A stretch of 64,000 nt of DNA from an uncultured Bdellovibrio sp. (GTDB taxonomy: Bacteria > Bdellovibrionota > Bdellovibrionia > Bdellovibrionales > Bdellovibrionaceae): NCBI GenBank assembly GCA_963932905.1, contig CAWVRN010000001.1:256001-320000 (forward strand), read 5' to 3'. This document shows, piece by piece, positions 1-37,129 of this stretch. Below the pieces are notes generated by a model. That model was not told the origin of the DNA and made no database searches. It saw only the letters and a list, made by a program, of their open reading frames with translations. Made by a program: the position numbers and the translations under genes. Within the stretch, counting starts at the first letter, position 1; each line of letters begins with the position of its first letter.

Positions 1-215
1 CAACACCGCCACCTCCACCGCCGGACATGGGAACTCCTCCGCCACCTCCACCGGATATGGCAGAAACTCCACCGCCGCCACCGCCGGACATGGGAACTCC
101 TCCGCCACCTCCACCGGATATGGCAGGAACTCCACCGCCGCCACCGCCAGACATGGGAACTCCGCCACCTCCACCGGATATGGCAGGAACCCCTCCACCT
201 CCACCACCAGATATG
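1..215 (+). repeat. Coding tandem repeat of about 27-33 bp units
   Basis: Repeated ccggacatgggaactcctccgccacctcca / ccggatatggcaggaactccaccgccgcca units encode poly-Pro. Confidence 0.9.
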
Positions 216-416
216 CAGGGTGCTGCGGGAACTACGAAAGACCCAGCGAGTGAACAGGGTGATGCTTCAACAATTGCGGGAATGGACCAAGAAACAATCA
301 TGATCGTGGGTATTGGTGCCGCAGCGTTGTTACTAGCAGTTATTTTCATTGTGAAGAGAAAAAACAAACAAAGACAAGAGTTTGAACAAGCAATGAACGA
401 AACACAAGTAGGTTAA
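1..416 (+). CDS. Proline-rich, C-terminally membrane-anchored protein (5' partial)
   Basis: The frame is open to the window edge. Tandem DM(G/AG/AE)TPPPPPP units are followed by a hydrophobic helix (IMIVGIGAAALLLAVIFIV) and a KRKNK stop-transfer. Confidence 0.8.
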   Translation, partial: TPPPPPPDMGTPPPPPPDMAETPPPPPPDMGTPPPPPPDMAGTPPPPPPDMGTPPPPPDMAGTPPPPPPDMQGAAGTTKDPASEQGDASTIAGMDQETIMIVGIGAAALLLAVIFIVKRKNKQRQEFEQAMNETQVG

Positions 417-3406: not shown

Positions 3407-3893
3407 ATTTAATCGTCGTAGCTAAAATTGCGACTATTTTTTCTAATCCTGTCCTATCCGAATTGGAAAATCGGTTGAATGATGGTGAATCTAAATCAAA
3501 CACTCCTATTAACTTTCCATCTTTGTTTAATAGTGGAATAACAATTTCAGATTTCGAAGCTGAATCACACACAATGTGACCTGGGAATTTATCGACATCT
3601 TCAACGACTACCGTTTTTAAATCAGTCGCGGCTTTTCCGCATACGCCTCTATTTAGCGGTATATAAATACACGCGGGTTTGCCATGAAATGGGCCCAGTA
3701 CTAGCTGGTTACCGTCGTATAAATAAAAACCCACCCAATTAAGCTCTGGCATTTGATGATAAACTGCCGCTGCGATATTCGCTAAGTTCGGAATTAATTC
3801 GGGTACCATCATACCCCGAATTTCTGATGTCAATTCTTTCCAGAATTTATCGGGATTGTTGTAGTTTAGATTTTTGTTGTTGGTCTCAAACAC
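3405..3893 (-). CDS. msrC: GAF-domain free methionine-(R)-sulfoxide reductase
   Basis: NWVGFY, LGPFHGKPAC, GVCG, FPGHIVCD, SEIVIP and DLDSP motifs of fRMsr/YebR. Confidence 0.9.
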   Translation of the reverse strand: MFETNNKNLNYNNPDKFWKELTSEIRGMMVPELIPNLANIAAAVYHQMPELNWVGFYLYDGNQLVLGPFHGKPACIYIPLNRGVCGKAATDLKTVVVEDVDKFPGHIVCDSASKSEIVIPLLNKDGKLIGVFDLDSPSFNRFSNSDRTGLEKIVAILATTIK

Positions 3894-4455
3894 TTCGTTT
3901 TGTCCTCAGCTTTGAAATAATTTTCCAAAATGGAGACTTCGTAAAAAGAAGTGATAGAGCACAGGCCGTTGTGATGATGTTAAACGGTACTGAAATAACA
4001 TACAAAGGCAGTGCTAGCTGTAGGCCGACTGGAATTTGTTGAAGCATATATTCAAAGGAACCGCCGCCGCCTAAGACGCGTCCTGCGGCCATATCGTGGT
4101 AGGCCCATAACATCGACGCCGGAATCGACGCTAAAAGAATAGAAACGGGAATAACCAGAATTCCAGTTAAAATGTGCAACCACTTTCTTGAGTCGGAAAA
4201 AAACACTTTCCAAGCGGAAGCGATCAAACCAAAACAAATACTCATGATCCACCAATAGGTCGCTGGGTATTCCCAGTGGTAGCTCGGCATTTTATAAAAG
4301 CTGCCGTAAGGCTGATTCCCAAAAGTCGTGAATCCCACAAACGGGAAAGAGGTCGATGAGAAATCAAATTCTATAACTTGAACTAACCAATAACAAAGTT
4401 GGCCTAAGAAAAAACAAGACAGAGTGTAAATTATGAAAGGCTTTAGAAATTTCAT
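3886..4455 (-). CDS. Hypothetical membrane protein
   Basis: 189 aa with about four hydrophobic segments; overlaps the msrC start. Confidence 0.65.
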   Translation of the reverse strand: MKFLKPFIIYTLSCFFLGQLCYWLVQVIEFDFSSTSFPFVGFTTFGNQPYGSFYKMPSYHWEYPATYWWIMSICFGLIASAWKVFFSDSRKWLHILTGILVIPVSILLASIPASMLWAYHDMAAGRVLGGGGSFEYMLQQIPVGLQLALPLYVISVPFNIITTACALSLLFTKSPFWKIISKLRTKRSV

Positions 4456-4505: not shown

Positions 4506-5756
4506 CTATTTTCGAGCGTCAATAATACGTTTTAATTTTCCAGTGCGACCATTAGTATCTAAATCCGTCATTTGCACAAACTCGATGGCCAATGGATGAA
4601 TAAGTGTGCCGTCCACCAGTTTTTTAATCATTTCACGTTCTTGATAAATATAGTCTTTGATTTGATTTTGCACGCTTGCCGATGGATTAGCAGCAGCGAT
4701 TCTAATCACTAATTGATCCTTGTTTTCAAAGTGCACTAGACGCAATTGAAATCCTTTTATGTGGATAACATCGTGGAATGTGTTTAATAAGTGATTCATG
4801 TCTTCGTAATAAACGGTTGCAGGACCAACGCGTGCACCTTCGTCCGAGCGGCCCAAAATTTTAAATTTTCTTTGAGATGTCACTGAAGAACTATCAATCC
4901 ACATGGCTTTATCCCCAACAGGATAGCGAATGATCGGCATGAGCGTTCGAGTTAAATTTGTTAAAAACATTTTACCTGGACGATTTGGCTCAGTTATGAC
5001 TTCTAAAGTATCTTCATCCAAAATTTCCATCACTGTGTACTCACTAAAAACACGATGTTCCTGAATATCGCATGTTTCATCTACATAACCCAGCAACCCG
5101 CCATCTACACTGGCATATCCGATGGACTGAATGTGTACTTTAGGAAAAACTTCCCTAACAAAACTAATTTGGTCAGTATACATGCTTTCGCCGCCAAACA
5201 ATATTTTTGTCGGTGGATGGAGCTTGTTTGTCTGTGCATATTCAGAGAGCTTCATCATGCTAGTGGGAACGCCGGCCCAAGTAGTGATTTCGAAAGAATT
5301 AATAGTTTCTACTATGTGGCTAAAATCTGCCCCGCCACTCAATGGAAAATGAACCACGTCTGAATTTGATTTTTCAATCGATTTAGAAATAAACATAAAC
5401 GATGCATACAGATCGCCGGCATAAAACATGTTTGCGATTTTTTCACCAGTTTTAAGGCCACCTTTGAGCATGCCTTCCCCGAAAGCAAACGTGAAAAGTT
5501 CCCATTCACCCAACGAAAAGAAAGAAAATTTTGGACTGCCAGTGGTGCCGCCACTTTTAAAGACAATTCCGCTTGATTGTGGACCTGTTAAAACTTGATT
5601 GCCATTGATCGTGTTAGCTTTCCAAAAAGCCGCACTATCTAAAATAGGTAGCTGAGAAAGCTGCGTAAAAGTTCCTACATCCTTATACAAACTTTTATAA
5701 TAGGGAGATTGTTTGCGAGCAATGTCGACAAGTTCTTCTACGGAATAGGTTTTCAT
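4506..5756 (-). CDS. Phenylacetate-CoA-ligase (PaaK)-like adenylate-forming ligase
   Basis: KSGGTTGSPK, FGGE, GYASVD, IRYPVGD and GRSD adenylation motifs. Confidence 0.88.
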   Translation of the reverse strand: MKTYSVEELVDIARKQSPYYKSLYKDVGTFTQLSQLPILDSAAFWKANTINGNQVLTGPQSSGIVFKSGGTTGSPKFSFFSLGEWELFTFAFGEGMLKGGLKTGEKIANMFYAGDLYASFMFISKSIEKSNSDVVHFPLSGGADFSHIVETINSFEITTWAGVPTSMMKLSEYAQTNKLHPPTKILFGGESMYTDQISFVREVFPKVHIQSIGYASVDGGLLGYVDETCDIQEHRVFSEYTVMEILDEDTLEVITEPNRPGKMFLTNLTRTLMPIIRYPVGDKAMWIDSSSVTSQRKFKILGRSDEGARVGPATVYYEDMNHLLNTFHDVIHIKGFQLRLVHFENKDQLVIRIAAANPSASVQNQIKDYIYQEREMIKKLVDGTLIHPLAIEFVQMTDLDTNGRTGKLKRIIDARK

Positions 5757-8311
5757 GTAAATCCCCGATTATCAATGATGTGCAAAAGCTTGCCGCTAGC
5801 AGCACTGCGAGACATTTGTTCCGAAGGTACAAGTTCGATTTTAACTTCAAGAACTTTTTCGTAGTTAACAAGTTCATCCAAATCATAATAGGTATCTAAA
5901 AACGCCTTGGTTACATCTGTCATGGAACCAAGTCCACGAACACTGAGTGACCGTAGAAATTCTGTTTCATTGGAATCAGATAGAATTTTAACGGTCATTA
6001 ATTCTTTATTGCCGTGCTTAGCCAGCACTATTTGAAATTCACTTGGAATACCGAGTTTTTCGGATAGCAGAGTTCCGATATGGTTGTAGTTTAAGAAACT
6101 ACCCGCCGCGCGAAAAATATCTCCGTAACGACCATGTAGTTCAAAGCGTGGTGATTTGCGCCCACAAGGACAATCCGCTTTTACCCATTTCCCTAAATCG
6201 CCAACATCGTATCGCAATAAACTTTGATCTTCACGGGAATGAGTAGAGAAAATCAGTCGTCCAAGCTCGTCACCATCAACGGAATGTAAAGAATCGAGTT
6301 TCAAAATTTCTAGAAGATGGATGTTATGATGTAGATGATAGGTTTTGTTATCTGAATACGGGCATTGATATCCTAACGGTCCCATATCCACACTGCCGTA
6401 ACTTGCGGACTTAATCACTTTTACACCGAAATCATTTTTTAACTTTTCTATCTGGGCCATTGAAAATGCCTCGCCGCCGTAGAAAATCTTTTCGATCATA
6501 CGATCTTGGGTAATCCACTGACGATTGTGTTCTAGTAGCTGCATCAAATACGATGGCATACCCATTAAAACATTTACTTTAAATTTTCGTATAATCTGTC
6601 CAACAAAATCATAGTCCATATAAGCTGACATAGGAAACTGAACAGCCTTAAGTTCTTCCATAATAGTGAAGAAACTTAAAAATCCACCGTACAGTCCGCC
6701 ACCAAAGAACAAATTCATGGTTCTATCTTTACGTGGATCCAAGCCAGCGGCCATTAATCCGTTGGCAGCCGCTTGCATTTGCGTGTGATAGTCTACGTAA
6801 GTAAATTGTGAGATTTTAGATACACCAGAGCTGCCGCCGCTTTTAAAATAGAGCTGCGAACTTGGTTGATCAGGAATATTTTGGAAATCCACCTTGTCCA
6901 TCAACTTATCTGGAAACTGGTCAAAATGAATTTTATTTTCATGCAAATCATTTAACGTCGAAAAAGATTTTAAATTTTCAATTTTTGATTCCAAACTAAC
7001 ACGGCGGACGTATCTGTTTAAGGCAAAATAACCGTCATGTGGTTCCCCCATATAACTATCCTGCATTCCTCCGTTAGATCGAATGCGCGTAACGCCGCAA
7101 GAATAAAACAATCGACTAAGTTCAAACAAATCAGACATCGCGCAAGCCAGACCAACTGTTTGCAAGTACTGCTTCATGGGTCTAAATGTCTTCATGATAT
7201 TTGCCCGTTGAATTGGCTTAACCCAAATCGTTTTATATAACGGAGACGCACGCAACGAAGATCTTGAATCAATCCAAATACGCCATTGACCATGAGTATC
7301 TTCAATCGCATCAGTGTAATTCGGTTGAAGTGACTTTTCTGTTTTAACGATAAGTCCCATCTTGGTGATTTCGGCATCTTCCATTTCAGAGGTGTCGTTA
7401 GCCGCGTAGTTACTGACAACCGCATTCATAGACTGACCTAATAAAGTCGAAAACGATTTTAAATCGGCAAAGCTGGCATCCTCTAAATAGACGCACTGAG
7501 GACTTGAACAAGCCTGTTGATTGAAAACGAAAATGTCATGCACAACTTGTTTTACGGTTTCTAGATTTTGCCATTCTGTTTTCGTTAAATACGAAAAACT
7601 AATTTTATGGCCCCAGTCAATAAATCGAGCCGAAGATGGAACACTTTTTCTAATTTCATTGATAGCTTCCTCGCCGCCCCAAGCGACGACTCCATCCGCG
7701 TGCGAATAGAGACGTTCAAGCAGTGCTTTTTCTTTTGAACTAATATTAACGACGCACACACGATTTTTCCAACAAGCCGTTTGCGAGAACTTAGAAAACT
7801 CGGTGAAAAAGTCTTGAGTAAAAGAGCTGGACTGGTGGCTGAGTTTTAAAATATTCACATTACCTGTCATTAAGCCTTCAAATGCGCTCAGTACAGGAAG
7901 AGCGAAATCATTGCCAGATAAAACTTGTACGATCAATCCAAGAGGTTCCCATTTTTCAAAAATATTGCCATCGGCGTTGATACGTTTACTTGTAAACGGG
8001 GTTAGGCTGCCTAGTTCATTGCTGATTTTGAACTTGATTTGCTTTTTAGAAATAAAGTCCGCAATAGAATTAATAATTTCTTTAGCGATATCTGAACTAA
8101 TTCCGTCCTGTACTGTTAGAGTAGCCACTAAACGTGATTGAATTTCAGACTCAGATTTCAACTGTTTTGAAAATGCATCACAAGATTCTACAAATAAATC
8201 GAGGTCAAAGTTTTCTATCAAAGCAGATTCGATGCAACTTTCAAGGGTTTCTAACTTACTAATAAGTTCTTCGTGACTAACGGTTTGTCCTTGCCAGAAG
8301 TGCGTTCTCAT
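5753..8311 (-). CDS. Fusion of a LuxC-like acyl reductase (N-terminal) and a PaaK-like ligase (C-terminal)
   Basis: N-half: NILK, AWGGEEA, QQACSSPQ (catalytic Cys), PHDG. C-half: KSGGSSG, YGGE, YGSVD, LRYDVGD, CPCGR, GRYGD. Confidence 0.88.
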   Translation of the reverse strand: MRTHFWQGQTVSHEELISKLETLESCIESALIENFDLDLFVESCDAFSKQLKSESEIQSRLVATLTVQDGISSDIAKEIINSIADFISKKQIKFKISNELGSLTPFTSKRINADGNIFEKWEPLGLIVQVLSGNDFALPVLSAFEGLMTGNVNILKLSHQSSSFTQDFFTEFSKFSQTACWKNRVCVVNISSKEKALLERLYSHADGVVAWGGEEAINEIRKSVPSSARFIDWGHKISFSYLTKTEWQNLETVKQVVHDIFVFNQQACSSPQCVYLEDASFADLKSFSTLLGQSMNAVVSNYAANDTSEMEDAEITKMGLIVKTEKSLQPNYTDAIEDTHGQWRIWIDSRSSLRASPLYKTIWVKPIQRANIMKTFRPMKQYLQTVGLACAMSDLFELSRLFYSCGVTRIRSNGGMQDSYMGEPHDGYFALNRYVRRVSLESKIENLKSFSTLNDLHENKIHFDQFPDKLMDKVDFQNIPDQPSSQLYFKSGGSSGVSKISQFTYVDYHTQMQAAANGLMAAGLDPRKDRTMNLFFGGGLYGGFLSFFTIMEELKAVQFPMSAYMDYDFVGQIIRKFKVNVLMGMPSYLMQLLEHNRQWITQDRMIEKIFYGGEAFSMAQIEKLKNDFGVKVIKSASYGSVDMGPLGYQCPYSDNKTYHLHHNIHLLEILKLDSLHSVDGDELGRLIFSTHSREDQSLLRYDVGDLGKWVKADCPCGRKSPRFELHGRYGDIFRAAGSFLNYNHIGTLLSEKLGIPSEFQIVLAKHGNKELMTVKILSDSNETEFLRSLSVRGLGSMTDVTKAFLDTYYDLDELVNYEKVLEVKIELVPSEQMSRSAASGKLLHIIDNRGFT

Positions 8312-9471
8312 ACGAAATCCTTTAGCAATTCAGCCGCAGCTATTGCGCAGCTCTTATTTTTAGAAATTCCTGCGCGCCCTAGAATCTCAAACCAATCCGT
8401 TTTTAATCCGCAGGTGCAGGTTTCACCTCTGTGCAAAATAGCGAGATCACCCATCGTAACAGCATTTGCTGGAGCCGATGTGATGTAAGGGGAAATAAAT
8501 TGTAAAAACCCAGGCTTATCATAACCAACTAAGTTTAAATTTTTTAAGTCACGGATGAGCACTTTAGAATACACCGGAACATGAAACTTATGCTGGCTAC
8601 ACTCGATATAAGGAATGCAGTGCTCAACCGATCCAAATCCGTCGCGTAGACGATGATTAGGAATTCCTAACATTTCTTCGGCAAGTGCGTACAATTCTGA
8701 TTTCTTAATTTCTTGGTTAGCGTAACCTTTCCAGCCGCCGCCTAGGAAAACCAATGATTCTGGAGACAGCTTTAATGGTCTATATTTTAACTCTTTCATT
8801 CGCTGAAGAGTGAAATAGAAAAACGAAGGAAAGCCGAAAATACGAACGGGTAATTCTTCAACTTCATACTCTTGAAGTGTTTTGATGGCGCCAAATATAT
8901 CAAAATCGTGACCGCCTTTTCCAGTAAGCTTCAAAGTGTAATCTGCACGGTTAACGGGTGCGTATTTAGTCAAATAGTTATCAGTAAATGCTGTTCCTAA
9001 TTTAGAATCGATCTCAGTTTGATAGGTATAAAGTAAATAGTTGGTTTTCTTACTAGGCGTAATCCATCCGTAATAGTCATAGATAAAATCAACCATTTGC
9101 TGAGCACAGCCTAAACTCCATTCGTCAAAAAACATTTGTGATTTTTGTCCCGATGTCCCGGAGGACGTTAAGTTAATGTGAACATTATCATCAGAAACAG
9201 ACTTAATTGCGTGGTATTTAAAAAACTCGGCCGGGATACTTGGAATAGTGACTAAATCGCCGTCCCATTTGTTAATGTCAAAACCAGAATCTTTTAGAAA
9301 TTGTCGGTAGAAAGTAGATTTCTCTTGATGCCAACGAATGACTTCTTTCATGGCCTGAACAAATAGAGAATCGTTTTCGGCCGATATCGCGTACGGAGAT
9401 GTGATTTTACAAAGCCTCTCGACAGATCCTAAAAGCGCGCGACTAGGTGGAAAAAGTTCTTTATTTGTCAT
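8308..9471 (-). CDS. LuxE-like acyl-protein synthetase / ligase
   Basis: TSSGTSGQKS, GGGWKG, DGFGSVEH, MGDLA, GRAG and a C-terminal Cys (KSCAIAA). Confidence 0.88.
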   Translation of the reverse strand: MTNKELFPPSRALLGSVERLCKITSPYAISAENDSLFVQAMKEVIRWHQEKSTFYRQFLKDSGFDINKWDGDLVTIPSIPAEFFKYHAIKSVSDDNVHINLTSSGTSGQKSQMFFDEWSLGCAQQMVDFIYDYYGWITPSKKTNYLLYTYQTEIDSKLGTAFTDNYLTKYAPVNRADYTLKLTGKGGHDFDIFGAIKTLQEYEVEELPVRIFGFPSFFYFTLQRMKELKYRPLKLSPESLVFLGGGWKGYANQEIKKSELYALAEEMLGIPNHRLRDGFGSVEHCIPYIECSQHKFHVPVYSKVLIRDLKNLNLVGYDKPGFLQFISPYITSAPANAVTMGDLAILHRGETCTCGLKTDWFEILGRAGISKNKSCAIAAAELLKDFV

Positions 9472-10636
9472 CGAATACCCCTAGAACATCTAGATGCATT
9501 TGTTTCCACAAATCCACATACTGATCAATATAAGGCTTAAATGATTTCTCGATCTGCATTCCTCTAAAATTCAACGGTTCCATCGAACGCGACATCAACA
9601 CCAGGTCCATAAACTTACCTTCGTATTCTAGCATGGCCGGGTAAATAGCAGACGGGAGAAAATTTACATCTAATAAGGTTTCAAGAGAAAGTATGCTATC
9701 CATCGCCATTAAGATCTCAACGTAAGATACGCCATAATCATGTAACTGCTGCAATAACGGTCGCAGACGTCCTGCCATTGAATAAAATGGCGCCGTCGCT
9801 GTGATTAAAGCGCAATAACCATCCGACTTACTTAAGTAGCCGTAGATGTCGACTTCCCCATTTTTAGAAGCCAGTAGCAAATTAGGCTCGTGAAATGGAA
9901 AGAAAACATCAAATGGGTCCTTAAATGTTTGCGCGAATCGACGTTTAACGAAATTAGGAGCCAAAATAATTTCGAATTCTAAATGTTCACCACTTGGTTT
10001 TGGGCGAACCATTTTTAGCAATCGTGGTGTTGGATGAGGCGATTTGATATATTTTTCGCTAGCTTTAAATATAGGGCCTAGCGCCTCGGGAACTTCCTCG
10101 ACACGTGCCCGTTTTTTCAAAACTTCTGGATCGTGCTTCGCCATTAAAGTCAGCGTTTCATAATTTGCTAAGCGGTGAGCATTCGGGAAAATTCCAAGTG
10201 GTTTAAATTTATTTTTAATAAATACTAGCTGCGGACTTACACTTAAAGTCCGTGTTGTTGCATAGATCGAGTGAACAATTTTATTGTCTTTCATTAAATA
10301 GTCGGAACCATGATTAAGTAATATCGAAGCTAGTCCCTTACTTTGATAGTAAGGATGAGTTACAAATCCTTCAGCACGGGCGATTTTAAAAAACGTATCA
10401 ACCTCAAATACCGCTGAAGCACAAAGAATATTTTTATCAGGGTCGTGAGCCACTAGCCACAAACTATCTTTGTCTTGGATAATTTTCTGCATAGCTGCAC
10501 GATCAGTTCCCAGCGCAAGTGGATAGTTGCTGCCATAGATAGTAAAATAAAGAGTCAAAAGATCCTGAATATCAGAAACCTTTGCTCGGCGCATAATTAG
10601 GCCGCCGTCTATTTTTATAACTTCATCATGCTTCAT
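9461..10636 (-). CDS. GNAT-family N-acyltransferase with a C-terminal extension
   Basis: RRAKVSD start and VTHPYYQSKGLASIL acyl-CoA-binding motif A. Confidence 0.8.
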   Translation of the reverse strand: MKHDEVIKIDGGLIMRRAKVSDIQDLLTLYFTIYGSNYPLALGTDRAAMQKIIQDKDSLWLVAHDPDKNILCASAVFEVDTFFKIARAEGFVTHPYYQSKGLASILLNHGSDYLMKDNKIVHSIYATTRTLSVSPQLVFIKNKFKPLGIFPNAHRLANYETLTLMAKHDPEVLKKRARVEEVPEALGPIFKASEKYIKSPHPTPRLLKMVRPKPSGEHLEFEIILAPNFVKRRFAQTFKDPFDVFFPFHEPNLLLASKNGEVDIYGYLSKSDGYCALITATAPFYSMAGRLRPLLQQLHDYGVSYVEILMAMDSILSLETLLDVNFLPSAIYPAMLEYEGKFMDLVLMSRSMEPLNFRGMQIEKSFKPYIDQYVDLWKQMHLDVLGVFDDK

Positions 10637-11868
10637 TTGAAGATCTCCTGACCGAAACGGCGGAATGTAAAATAGGATACCAGTACGAACGCGACCAATA
10701 GAATACCGGCTACTCGCCCAATAGAGAAGACGCTGATAGACTGTTGAAATAGTCCAAGCAATGCTAGCGAAAATGGAAGTGCGGCAGTGCTAATTAAATT
10801 CACTAAACTCATGACCTGAGGAACTTCTTCTGCTTTAGGTTGTGTTTGCAAAATATTGATAATCAAAACATTAGCTAAGCCTAATGATAATCCCATCACA
10901 AACAATGCGACAGAGGATACCTGCAAACTGCTAGCGAAAGTAAAAGAAAGAAACCCAAGGCTTAGAGCAAATAAAAATACCCAAGTCCAAAACAAAGTAC
11001 GCGATTGAATGGTGATAAAACTTAAAACAGCGCCGCCTAGCAAGATTCCCGTGCCTAACAGTGTTTCTAAAATAGCCAATGAATTAAAAGAGTTTCCAAA
11101 TAAATCTTTTGCCATAGTCGGCATCAAGACTTGTAGGGGGCTTAATAACAAGTTCATAACTAAAAATACGATAAGCATAACACCAATAATTTTTTTAGTT
11201 TGAAATAAGCTAACGGAACCGTCCGTTGCGGCGTATGTACCGCTACCAACTGACTTTAACGACGATTTTGTAACTAAAGAAACCGAGTAGGCCGACGCGA
11301 TATAACTGACTCCAGAGATAATAAATAGGCCGCTTAGGCCAAAATGATTAAATGCAAACAATCCAAGTACCGGCCCTAAAATAGTGGCGAACGATGTCAC
11401 AGTAGATAGTTTAGCGGTTAGTTTCTGAACGTCGTCAGATTCTTTGATTTCAACCGCAAGCGATAAAATGGCAGGATTAAAAAATGCGGAGAAAATATTA
11501 GAAAGAAAAACAGAAATAAATAAAAGCCATAATACATTATTGCCTTTGGCGGGATCGAGCCAGTGTGGGAAAGCTAACACCAGAACAAACGCACCCACAT
11601 AAATGGTTCCGCGAGCCAAATCGGAATACAAAACTGTTTTAAGGGCGCTCAATCGACTGATCATCAAACTTGAATGTTTGATTAAAAGCGCGTGAGGTAA
11701 ACCACCAACGACTAGGTACCAAATTAAAAACTGTTCGCCAAAACTAGAAGTAATAAACCAAATCAGACCCAGTTGAACCATACGATCCGACACTTGTGAC
11801 AGGGTTTGCCCGACAAGTAACAATAGATCATCAAACTGATTAGAACGTTTAATTACCATAGTATTCAT
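10633..11868 (-). CDS. MFS exporter (MefA/DHA3-like)
   Basis: About 12 transmembrane helices; GQTLSQVSD, SDLARG, AFFNPA, ILGPVLG. Confidence 0.85.
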   Translation of the reverse strand: MNTMVIKRSNQFDDLLLLVGQTLSQVSDRMVQLGLIWFITSSFGEQFLIWYLVVGGLPHALLIKHSSLMISRLSALKTVLYSDLARGTIYVGAFVLVLAFPHWLDPAKGNNVLWLLFISVFLSNIFSAFFNPAILSLAVEIKESDDVQKLTAKLSTVTSFATILGPVLGLFAFNHFGLSGLFIISGVSYIASAYSVSLVTKSSLKSVGSGTYAATDGSVSLFQTKKIIGVMLIVFLVMNLLLSPLQVLMPTMAKDLFGNSFNSLAILETLLGTGILLGGAVLSFITIQSRTLFWTWVFLFALSLGFLSFTFASSLQVSSVALFVMGLSLGLANVLIINILQTQPKAEEVPQVMSLVNLISTAALPFSLALLGLFQQSISVFSIGRVAGILLVAFVLVSYFTFRRFGQEIFK

Positions 11869-12207
11869 AGATATTTATCCAGGATATAAGGTAGCGAATT
11901 TTTAGAATTTGGTTAGTGTTGGTGGTTTAGACACTAACTTTTTCAATCGTCTATGGAAGCTCTTAGGTCGCTTGTCGCAAAGAAAACTAAACGCGAGTTA
12001 TGGGCTGTCAAAACTTTGTACAGCAAATACTTCAATAGTGAAAATTAGTTTGTCGCATATATAGATGAAAATCTAGATCAAGAAATAGCTTTCCCAAACT
12101 TAGGTTACAAATTTTGACCCAGAAATAAATGCCTATTGTGGAATCTGGAAATTTAAAATACAACCGGCTGCATTCTTTAAATTATTTTTTCAACTGGGGT
12201 GGTTGCG

Positions 12208-12720
12208 ATGAAATCAGTTTTGATTTTAAGTTTGTCTCTTTTGTTTTTAACGGCATGTAATATTAAAGCCTCGGATAGTTCCGATGATAGTGGTAATTCA
12301 GGTGATGCCGGTGCAGCAGTTACGTACGCTACCTACGAAATGATCGAAGGCTGCTCAACAGGCATAAAAAAAATAACGGCAGCCAGTGAGGCTGACCTAC
12401 AAGTAGCATTTTGTAACATGCTAAAAGATAACTCAGCGAATGGAAATTGCGCTAGCTACCAACGTGAATCAGCTTTTAAAACTATGAAGTGTGAAGGCGC
12501 ATGGCCACACGTCAGTAGCACAGGATACAATGTTAGCAGCACTCAATCTTATGTGTATCGCGTAAATTCGTGCAACACAGGCTTTCACTATTTCTCGTCC
12601 TCAAATTCCGAATTAGGTCAAAAAGCATACTGCCAAGCTTTGCTTAATGATGAACTTAACCAAAACTGCGGTCGTGAAAAACGCCAAGAACAATTCAACG
12701 AATCGGGTTGCAAATTATAA
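12208..12720 (+). CDS. Cys-rich lipoprotein with an internal duplication
   Basis: Lipobox LTAC and two 4-Cys repeats; ATG at 12208. Confidence 0.75.
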   Translation: MKSVLILSLSLLFLTACNIKASDSSDDSGNSGDAGAAVTYATYEMIEGCSTGIKKITAASEADLQVAFCNMLKDNSANGNCASYQRESAFKTMKCEGAWPHVSSTGYNVSSTQSYVYRVNSCNTGFHYFSSSNSELGQKAYCQALLNDELNQNCGREKRQEQFNESGCKL

Positions 12721-36094: not shown

Positions 36095-37129
36095 GTGGCA
36101 GTACCCAATATCTCGGCCGGTGAATTACAAACTCTAGCGGAAAAATTCTTAGACAAAGTCTTTGTTAAGGCTAGTTCGCAAAAATTTTCTATTGAGTCGC
36201 ATTGGGATATAGATCATTTGTGTTTTCGTTCGGAAAGCATTGATGAATATGAAGCCTACCGCGACGTGTTTTCCGCCTTGGGCGAGCTACTGACCGAGAT
36301 GAACGTGAACGGGCGCCCCATTGCGACGTTCGAGCTACACACACCGATCCAATACAAACAATGGCTAATTAAATTGATTGAATTGCCAGCGCCCAAAAAA
36401 GGTAAATCAGTCACCACGGGTTTTGAGCATTTTGAAATCGTCGTTGATCGTTCTCTAGAACAGCTTGCAAAACAATACGCAAAACTAGAATGGGACAAGT
36501 CAGGATTAGAAAAAACATTTAATCCTGAACTTGAATTACCGTTAGGCGACGCCGCAATAAAACTTCATAATCTCTCTTTGAAATCAGTTATCAATTTCGA
36601 ACACCGTCCAAAAATGGCCATCTTAGTTTCTGAACTGAATCTACTTGAAATGTTTAAAGATCACGAACCTTTTATCGCGGGAACCGTTCCTTTAGCCGTT
36701 GATCTGCCAACAGCTGATTTGGATTTGCTGGTTACCTTCAGTGATGTCGCAAAATTCAAAGAAATGTGTCATCAGGGTTTTGCTCTGCTTCCTGAATTTG
36801 AAATTTCGATGGGTGAAATCAATGGAACTCCCTACTGCCTTTGCCGATTTGACTATCGAGGAATTCCCGTAGAAATTTTCTGCTCCGCCCAATCCACATT
36901 CAGGCAAAATGGATATTTACATTTCAACAGCGAAGAGAAGATCTTAAAATATGCCCGATCGACATGGACAAAAGAAATTTTGGAATTAAAACAGACTGGA
37001 TTAAAAACAGAGCCAGCCTTTGCGCGCCTACTACAAAGTCGTGACGTAGACGCTTACCAATTCATTTTAGATTTACAGAAAAAATCAATTCAAGATTTAC
37101 GACGCATTCTTAGATCTAGTCTGAACTAG
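36095..37129 (+). CDS. Fusion of a YecM-like VOC domain and a DUF4269-like domain
   Basis: N-half: DHLCFR, NGRPI, IELPAP, GFEHFEIV. C-half: GTVPLAVD..ADLDL, VEIF, GLKTEPAFA. Confidence 0.7.
   Translation: MAVPNISAGELQTLAEKFLDKVFVKASSQKFSIESHWDIDHLCFRSESIDEYEAYRDVFSALGELLTEMNVNGRPIATFELHTPIQYKQWLIKLIELPAPKKGKSVTTGFEHFEIVVDRSLEQLAKQYAKLEWDKSGLEKTFNPELELPLGDAAIKLHNLSLKSVINFEHRPKMAILVSELNLLEMFKDHEPFIAGTVPLAVDLPTADLDLLVTFSDVAKFKEMCHQGFALLPEFEISMGEINGTPYCLCRFDYRGIPVEIFCSAQSTFRQNGYLHFNSEEKILKYARSTWTKEILELKQTGLKTEPAFARLLQSRDVDAYQFILDLQKKSIQDLRRILRSSLN

Follow-up and report, generated by a model that had tools for sequence, protein, structure and literature searches.

Carrier-Free Leupeptin Biosynthesis and Related Systems

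A leupeptin molecule carries an acyl cap and an aldehyde and contains two peptide bonds; its operon was reportedly described by Li et al. in 2020 in Klebsiella michiganensis/oxytoca, and also in Photorhabdus and Xenorhabdus. The present analysis concerns a five-gene operon of an uncultured Bdellovibrio sp. (contig CAWVRN010000001.1 of assembly GCA_963932905.1), located at positions 4506-11868 on the minus strand of a stretch of 64,000 nucleotides, which is called the window below; this operon is the counterpart of the leupeptin (leup) operon of Klebsiella, and it is real, intact and under selection. According to the accessible text of PMC11212599, which cites Li 2020, the leupeptin pathway is composed of separate AMP-dependent ligases and a reductase. 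The products of the leup cluster in K. michiganensis are leupeptin ([M+H]+ 427.30), a lysine analogue (399.30) and pyrazinones, and this cluster is silent in ordinary media, as stated in the available part of PMC11480411. Four genes are named leupA-D in the available part of PMC8283571, the transporter not being among them there, and the available part of the preprint 10.64898/2026.08.25.747093 lists the order MFS-leupA-leupB-leupC-leupD and counts the transporter, a member of the major facilitator superfamily (MFS), as a fifth component.

Three other groups of described systems are close to the locus. The product class predicted for the window operon is that of the peptide aldehydes made with non-ribosomal peptide synthetases (NRPS) in Streptomyces, such as S. 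roseus leupeptin, livipeptin and antipain; however, unlike the window operon, the Streptomyces aldehydes use NRPS or tRNA-dependent enzymes (10.1101/2020.10.26.356543, PMC11212599, both in their accessible text), and S. roseus leupeptin itself is NRPS-based (10.1101/2020.10.26.356543). True LuxE adenylates its acid with Lys238/Arg355; the acyl group then moves onto Cys364, which sits in a flexible tail at the C-terminus and hands it to the LuxC cysteine without CoA (PMC9157457, accessible text). The window operon resembles the LuxC-LuxE fatty acid reductase complex (PDB 7XC6) in the Lys/Arg pair, the C-terminal Cys tail, the reductase Cys and the predicted adenylate-thioester-aldehyde route, but differs from it in an identity of about 25%, in having neither LuxD nor luciferase, in the fusion of the reductase to a ligase and in the pocket motif. 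Finally, enzymes of the NatL2/AjiA1 type, which belong to benzoxazole biosynthesis, couple two building blocks without a carrier. They have been placed in the PaaK family (PMC8388817, accessible text), with which both window ligases share the fold and the ANL motifs.

Gene Content of the Operon and Its Relation to leupABC

The open reading frame (ORF) list of the 64-kb window contains five intact ORFs which fill 4506-11868 exactly and which are all read from the minus strand. In the direction of transcription they encode an MFS transporter of the DHA3/MefA-like type (10633-11868, 411 aa; PF07690, MFS_1), a two-domain GNAT acyltransferase (9461-10636, 391 aa; PF00583, Acetyltransf_1), a LuxE-like acyl-protein synthetase (8308-9471, 387 aa; Pfam LuxE 136 bits), a LuxC-type reductase/PaaK-like ligase fusion (5753-8311, 852 aa; Pfam LuxC 280 bits over residues 40-437) and a stand-alone PaaK-like ligase (4506-5756, 416 aa), the AMP-binding Pfam matches of the ligase domains being weak. 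Successive genes overlap by 4, 11, 4 and 4 bases, so that no carrier gene lies between them, and within the operon neither a carrier protein or NRPS nor an extra tailoring gene was found. Both statements of the original prediction on this point, namely five mutually overlapping genes on one strand and the lack of a carrier protein or NRPS, thus agree with the ORF list and with Pfam. All five genes are single-copy in the host genome (4.55 Mb, 98.6% complete), whose closest named relatives are Bdellovibrionaceae metagenome-assembled genomes (MAGs), with a release factor 1 that is 98% identical to that of UBA2316.

For the comparison with Klebsiella, the published leupA primer (PMC8283571, accessible text) was searched in metagenome contigs, which gave 8 loci; with the leupA/leupB primer pair, six of the 8 give a product of the published length, 1,235 bp, and the other two give products of 1,280 and 1,209 bp. 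One of these loci, L015, has the gene order MFS-leupA-leupB-leupC-leupD and encodes a LeupB with the same sequence as a protein named from K. michiganensis. BLASTP and trees agree on a one-to-one orthology in which the LuxE-like protein corresponds to LeupA, the fusion to LeupB and the lone ligase to LeupC, and the gene order leupA-leupB-leupC is kept in the window operon, while the position of the GNAT differs. The leupeptin-type reading put forward earlier is therefore borne out by ordered matches to LeupA, LeupB and LeupC and by supported clades in three trees; a grouping with canonical LuxC/LuxE, which had been named as the outcome that would speak against it, was not found, as the window proteins fall outside true LuxC/LuxE and together with the Leup proteins.

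Over 376 aa, the LuxE-like protein and LeupA share 51% identity, and both lie in a 34-row clade with a support of 99 (LuxE tree, 54 rows, quick search), outside which the true LuxE of a luxCDE plasmid (L094) forms a long branch; such long branches leave the exact placement of outgroups in the trees unsure. Its residues K248, R366 and C375 align to K238, R355 and C364 of LuxE, that is, all three are kept. The model has a PaaK/ANL fold, with low confidence in the Cys tail after residue 366, and 7XC6 is the sole sequence match of the protein, yet is absent among the Foldseek matches listed for its model. A motif, LGT[AS][FY]TD, is common to the window protein, LeupA, the close Bdellovibrionota orthologues and most of the three-gene cassettes described below, whereas it differs in a six-gene cassette type and in true LuxE.

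The fusion protein is 34% identical to LeupB over 845 columns, i.e., over its full length. The reductase occupies approximately residues 1-445, with the catalytic C268, and the QQAC motif containing this cysteine aligns with LuxC in 7xc6_A; the PaaK-like ligase follows, with the A10 lysine K841. The reductase domain falls with LeupB in a 45-row clade that excludes true LuxC (support 100; 64 rows, FastTree), and in the FastTree ligase tree of 105 rows the fused ligase domain falls with LeupB in a 44-row clade and the lone ligase with LeupC in a 35-row clade, each with a support of 100. The lone ligase is 38% identical to LeupC over 416 columns, its A10 lysine is K407, and the structures nearest to it are PaaK, NatL2 and AjiA1. 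Both PaaK-like domains, which are merely 25% identical to each other, have an intact P-loop and A10 lysine, with pocket-side motifs nearly the same as in LeupB and LeupC; they score far below the PaaK model TIGR02155 (63 and 73 bits against a cut-off of 646). In the related genomes L012 (7995-10496) and L072 (7048-9542), the reductase-ligase fusion appears as two adjacent ORFs, and the fusion is therefore probably not essential.

The operon is under purifying selection. The dN/dS ratios (nonsynonymous to synonymous substitution) against the relative L002 are 0.062 for the MFS gene, 0.016 for the fusion and 0.027 for the lone ligase; such ratios are rough because dS is saturated, which holds for the GNAT and LuxE-like genes against L002 and for all five genes against L003. 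The third-position GC content of the operon is 0.36-0.37, as compared with 0.31-0.43 in eight nearby genes. In four relatives (L003, L004, L005 and L008), the operon is flanked by an ABC-F gene and rho as it is here, the flanks being different in L009, and its chromosomal site is kept in relatives down to about 70% protein identity.

The Acyltransferase and the Transporter

Like the Klebsiella leup operon, the window operon has one GNAT and one MFS gene without carrier protein or NRPS, and the operons differ in these two genes: the window GNAT has 391 aa against 305 aa, is 16% identical and stands before the LuxE-like gene instead of last, and the window MFS comes from another subfamily and is missing in many relatives of the window operon. 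The hosts differ as well, a Bdellovibrionaceae genome as opposed to animal-associated gammaproteobacteria. By a profile comparison of the two families (match of 96.8%, E 2.8e-10, 268 columns, 16% identity), the GNAT is a distant homologue of LeupD. Its model has a pLDDT (predicted local distance difference test) of 90, with an N-terminal domain of GNAT fold and a second GNAT-like domain, and two tandem-GNAT entries align to it over 233-239 residues; the top Atlas matches of the C-terminal domain are unnamed clusters. Among close relatives, it is the best-conserved gene of the operon (92% in L004, against 60-73% for the others). It is probably the N-capping enzyme.

The window MFS gave no BLASTP match to the leup MFS at E 1e-3, so that orthology is not claimed for this gene, and its match to TIGR00900 (98.7 bits) is under the cut-off. 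It is probably an exporter with an accessory part in the pathway.

Proposed Pathway and Product

Very probably, the operon encodes the carrier-free assembly of an N-acyl tripeptide aldehyde by a leup-type pathway. In it, the GNAT would move a short acyl group from acyl-CoA onto an amino acid; the lone ligase and the fused ligase would each adenylate an acyl-amino acid or an acyl-peptide, and each would make one of the two amide bonds, so as to give an acyl-tripeptide acid, with the order of the two ligases, like the chemical steps as a whole, inferred. The LuxE-like protein would then adenylate this acid and load it on its own C375, from which the peptide would pass to C268 of the reductase, where NAD(P)H would free the aldehyde, and the MFS would probably export it.

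The three adenylating domains had at first been counted together. The two PaaK-like domains would form the amide bonds; the LuxE-like protein probably activates the finished acid for reduction and is not a third peptide ligase. That is to say, since the cap, the two peptide bonds and the aldehyde of leupeptin have their counterparts in a single GNAT, a pair of PaaK-like ligases and a LuxE/LuxC pair, the LuxE-like protein is assigned to reductive release. A locus on a Streptomyces plasmid (L096) carries a leup-clade LuxE/LuxC pair without ligase or GNAT, beside genes of the type found for ribosomally synthesised and post-translationally modified peptides (RiPPs) and a short ORF with four FPFR repeats, and this pair without ligase or GNAT fits a role of LuxE/LuxC in C-terminal reduction. 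The product is probably a small, protease-blocking peptide aldehyde, and because the LGT[AS][FY]TD motif is shared, a terminal residue similar to that of leupeptin is favoured; an Arg or Lys aldehyde is, by a small margin, the better guess.

Several points weigh against so close a parallel with leupeptin. The GNAT has no BLASTP match to LeupD, is 86 residues longer and comes first in order, and therefore the cap may differ. Position 151 of the LuxE-like protein is Gln, as against Glu in LeupA, and several motif positions of the fused ligase differ from LeupB. D164 was considered as a selector for Arg or Lys and is retained as no more than a weak lead, the pocket mapping hanging on a gap in a 79%-probability alignment; the L096 pair has neither D164 nor the LGT[AS][FY]TD motif, though its repeat cores end in Arg. 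Identities of 34-51% to the Leup proteins would also allow other residues, the roles given here to LeupA, LeupB, LeupC and LeupD are our own inference, and the trees were built without LeupA-C of Photorhabdus and Xenorhabdus.

Alternative Explanations

The same enzymes could make an acylated, peptide-like product of another class which is not a protease inhibitor and may be a signal, for example one with non-protein building blocks or with an alcohol or ring ending. Pyrazinones that act as signals are among the products of leup clusters too (PMC11480411, accessible text), PaaK-like ligases accept varied acids (PMC8388817, accessible text) and the GNAT comes from a different subfamily, all of which would suit such a product. 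However, the one-to-one orthology, the active-site motifs nearly identical to those of the leup enzymes and an operon without an extra tailoring gene make this quite unlikely. It is less probable still, and very unlikely, that the operon is a silent or decaying import without current function: it is patchy in the host family, and the Klebsiella cluster is silent in ordinary media (PMC11480411), but all reading frames and motifs are undamaged, no dN/dS value exceeds 0.062, the third-position GC content falls within the range of the nearby genes and the chromosomal site is kept.

A lux-type reductase of fatty or aryl acids, fed by CoA ligases and giving fatty or aryl aldehydes, would agree with the Pfam LuxC and LuxE matches and with the conserved LuxC/LuxE catalytic residues. 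Nevertheless, the LuxE-like protein is only about 25% identical to true LuxE, and the GNAT and the two ligases would be superfluous for fatty-aldehyde chemistry. The NCBIfam LuxC and LuxE models score 90.8 bits against a cut-off of 750 and 87.6 bits against 550, respectively; genome-wide profile searches gave no match to LuxD (PF02273) in the 98.6% complete host genome, and its sole luciferase-like gene (on contig G000:C39) scores 46 bits with the LuxA model (cut-off 600) and 39 bits with the LuxB model (cut-off 500). Thus luxAB elsewhere in the genome, a further outcome named beforehand as speaking against the leupeptin-type reading, was not found. On the strength of the NCBIfam scores, the LuxE and reductase trees and the lack of luxD and luxA/luxB, the fatty-aldehyde reading was rejected and is regarded as very unlikely, and the assembly line for an acyl tripeptide aldehyde is retained.

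The luciferase-like gene mentioned above stands away from the operon, in a cluster (G000:C39:7074-16928) together with P450, acyltransferase, acyl-CoA dehydrogenase, fatty-acyl-AMP-ligase-like and ABC permease genes, as read by eye from the translations; it may belong to a second, possible small-molecule pathway.

Distribution and Variants of the Operon

Among 401 Bdellovibrionota genomes, of which many are incomplete and kin are not independent, the LuxE-like query matches 92 and the fusion query 87. The LuxE-like scores are bimodal: 50 genomes, the host's own included, reach at least 424 bits with 52-100% identity, and the next match has 253 bits. By family, these close orthologues are found in 39 of 100 genomes of the Bacteriovoracaceae-like family f20, in 5 of 54 of the host family f1 (own included), in 5 of f23 and in 1 of f8. 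All three other genomes of the host genus carry one, whereas g4, the largest sampled genus of the host family, has no LuxE-like match in 26 genomes, and genus g2 has a match in 1 of 14, which is just a distant LuxE/LuxC pair. Four f20 genomes group, with a support of 99 in a release-factor tree, with a record named Bacteriovoracaceae.

From the 50 genomes with a close orthologue, 21 loci of the close type were examined. The order LuxE-reductase-ligase-ligase is present in all 21 (with the fusion split in L072), the GNAT is directly upstream in 20 and a BLAST-detectable MFS is present in 9. The close-type operon of L067 (5853-10810) has its LuxE-like gene without a GNAT gene upstream, as far as the fetched stretch reaches.

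Two further, more distant architectures occur. A three-gene cassette, GNAT-LuxE-fusion, with one PaaK-like domain and no lone ligase, was found at 13 loci (L075-L081, L089, L090, L092, L109-L111), mostly in family f20, with an LGTAFTD-type motif as in the window; its product is predicted, from the number of ligase domains, to be an acyl-dipeptide aldehyde. The second has the order ligase-(ATPase-like/GNAT)-LuxE-fusion plus a second GNAT, with an MFS in 6 of 7 loci (L074, L082-L087). In this larger cassette type (L074, L082-L088, L107, L112), the GNAT has 480-520 aa; that of L088 and of L107 matches an anti-sigma-type ATPase domain (PF13581) with its N-terminal part and comes after a Cache-HAMP-SpoIIE-ATPase gene, which suggests control by partner switching. 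L088 has two extra ligase-like genes. One genome of the host genus carries both a window-type operon (G280:C66, L023) and a larger cassette (G280:C30, L074). In L091 (6898-13371), an MFS gene lies between two LeupC-clade ligases, and the 15 kb fetched there contain neither a LuxE-like nor a reductase gene.

Beyond the phylum, whole clusters were found on two Streptomycetaceae plasmids, on one Salmonella plasmid and in one Obscuribacterales MAG, and proteins of the LeupB type have been named from several beta- and gammaproteobacteria. The plasmid clusters of Streptomyces sp. W1SF4 (L052) and Streptantibioticus cattleyicolor (L053) resemble the window in the order MFS-GNAT-LuxE-fusion, in the clades of their proteins and in the long GNAT type (33-39% identity to the window GNAT), but differ from it in having the lone ligase first; to our knowledge, no product has been assigned to them. 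The Salmonella enterica plasmid (CP054717.1, conjugative; L051) carries a leupABCD-like cluster with 52-73% identity to the Klebsiella proteins; it has merely a 121-aa MFS-like piece and sits among transposase and recombinase genes. In a free tree built from 36 of the 64 reductase rows, the proteobacterial LeupB clade is nested among Bdellovibrionota rows with supports of only 80-91, and in approximately unbiased (AU) tests a separate Bdellovibrionota clade is not rejected (p 0.377 and 0.589). In view of these tests and of a sampling biased to Bdellovibrionota, no donor is claimed for the leup genes.

The Streptomyces locus L096 (1055-9755) belongs to the Streptomyces europaeiscabiei plasmid NZ_CP109155.1 and contains leup-clade LuxE-like and stand-alone LuxC-like genes together with MBL-fold, DUF692/MNIO, YcaO/SagB-like and MFS genes, and a 53-aa ORF with four repeats of the FPFR core. 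From its gene content, it looks like a pathway for a ribosomally made peptide aldehyde; a literature search found no report of such a pathway, and a search of plasmids for its DUF692 gene gave no other full-length copy.

Upstream Element and Flanking Genes

About 40-50 bases ahead of the MFS start lies a conserved 14-base element (11906..11919, minus strand), a candidate promoter or operator, which is nearly invariant in all six aligned upstream regions and has one exact copy in the genome. It is not among the sigma-70-like sites listed by the promoter scan, and the promoter and terminator scans showed no excess over shuffled sequences (16 vs 24.4 and 11 vs 9.0, respectively).

Divergent from the operon, a lipoprotein-like ORF with two Cys-rich repeats (12199-12720, plus strand, 173 aa) gave no Pfam match and no usable Atlas match, and the gene adjoins the operon in L003, L005 and L008. 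On the other side, 50 bases past the ligase, a membrane protein gene (3886-4455, minus strand, 189 aa) overlaps a GAF-domain gene; the protein belongs to no known family, and the gene is kept in five close relatives. Both were considered as parts of the pathway and rejected, as they occur only among the closest relatives and are missing in L004. Elsewhere in the window, an ORF end at 27-416 (plus strand) carries about seven proline-rich repeats, nearly identical to one another, ahead of a hydrophobic stretch, and at 36095-37129 (plus strand) a YecM domain is fused to DUF4269.

Relation to Predation and Significance

Bdellovibrionaceae and Bacteriovoracaceae contain known predators (PMC11870529, PMC11656739, accessible text). 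The host genome has 4 S74-domain matches and 2 DacB-family genes, which is compatible with predation and not diagnostic. The suggestion made at the outset that the product serves predation is unsupported. Most of the host-family genomes sampled gave no match to the operon, which is therefore not needed for predation there and does not belong to the core machinery of predation. The product might block proteases of the prey, hold back those of the cell itself, keep grazers away or serve as a signal.

No report of a leup-type operon in Bdellovibrionota was found in the literature, which was judged mostly from abstracts and with subscription papers outside coverage; in the accessible text of PMC9177418 and PMC10676414, leupeptin appears in references only. 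The pathway type is thus already known, and its wide presence in Bdellovibrionota seems to be unreported. By itself, the window operon is a further member of the known leup pathway with a variant acyltransferase and exporter, and the added value lies in the commonness of leup-type operons in predator lineages. In a wider scenario, which we hold to be rather unlikely as a whole, many predatory Bdellovibrionota, mainly of a Bacteriovoracaceae-like family, would make a series of carrier-free peptide aldehydes, longer or shorter according to how many PaaK-like ligases are present (one, two or more in the architectures found); released into the prey periplasm or the surroundings, these would inhibit proteases of the prey or set the timing of the predator's own, and the window operon would make an undescribed member with a different cap.

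The one-ligase and multi-ligase cassettes suggest a simple path to new peptide-aldehyde protease inhibitors without NRPS engineering. The leup pathway has so far come from animal-associated gammaproteobacteria and has been read as a host-colonisation trait, and the intact close orthologues in 50 of the 401 Bdellovibrionota genomes point to its use among free-living bacteria. Since Bacteriovoracaceae include cultured predators (PMC11656739, accessible text), the role of the operon in these lineages can be tested by knockout.

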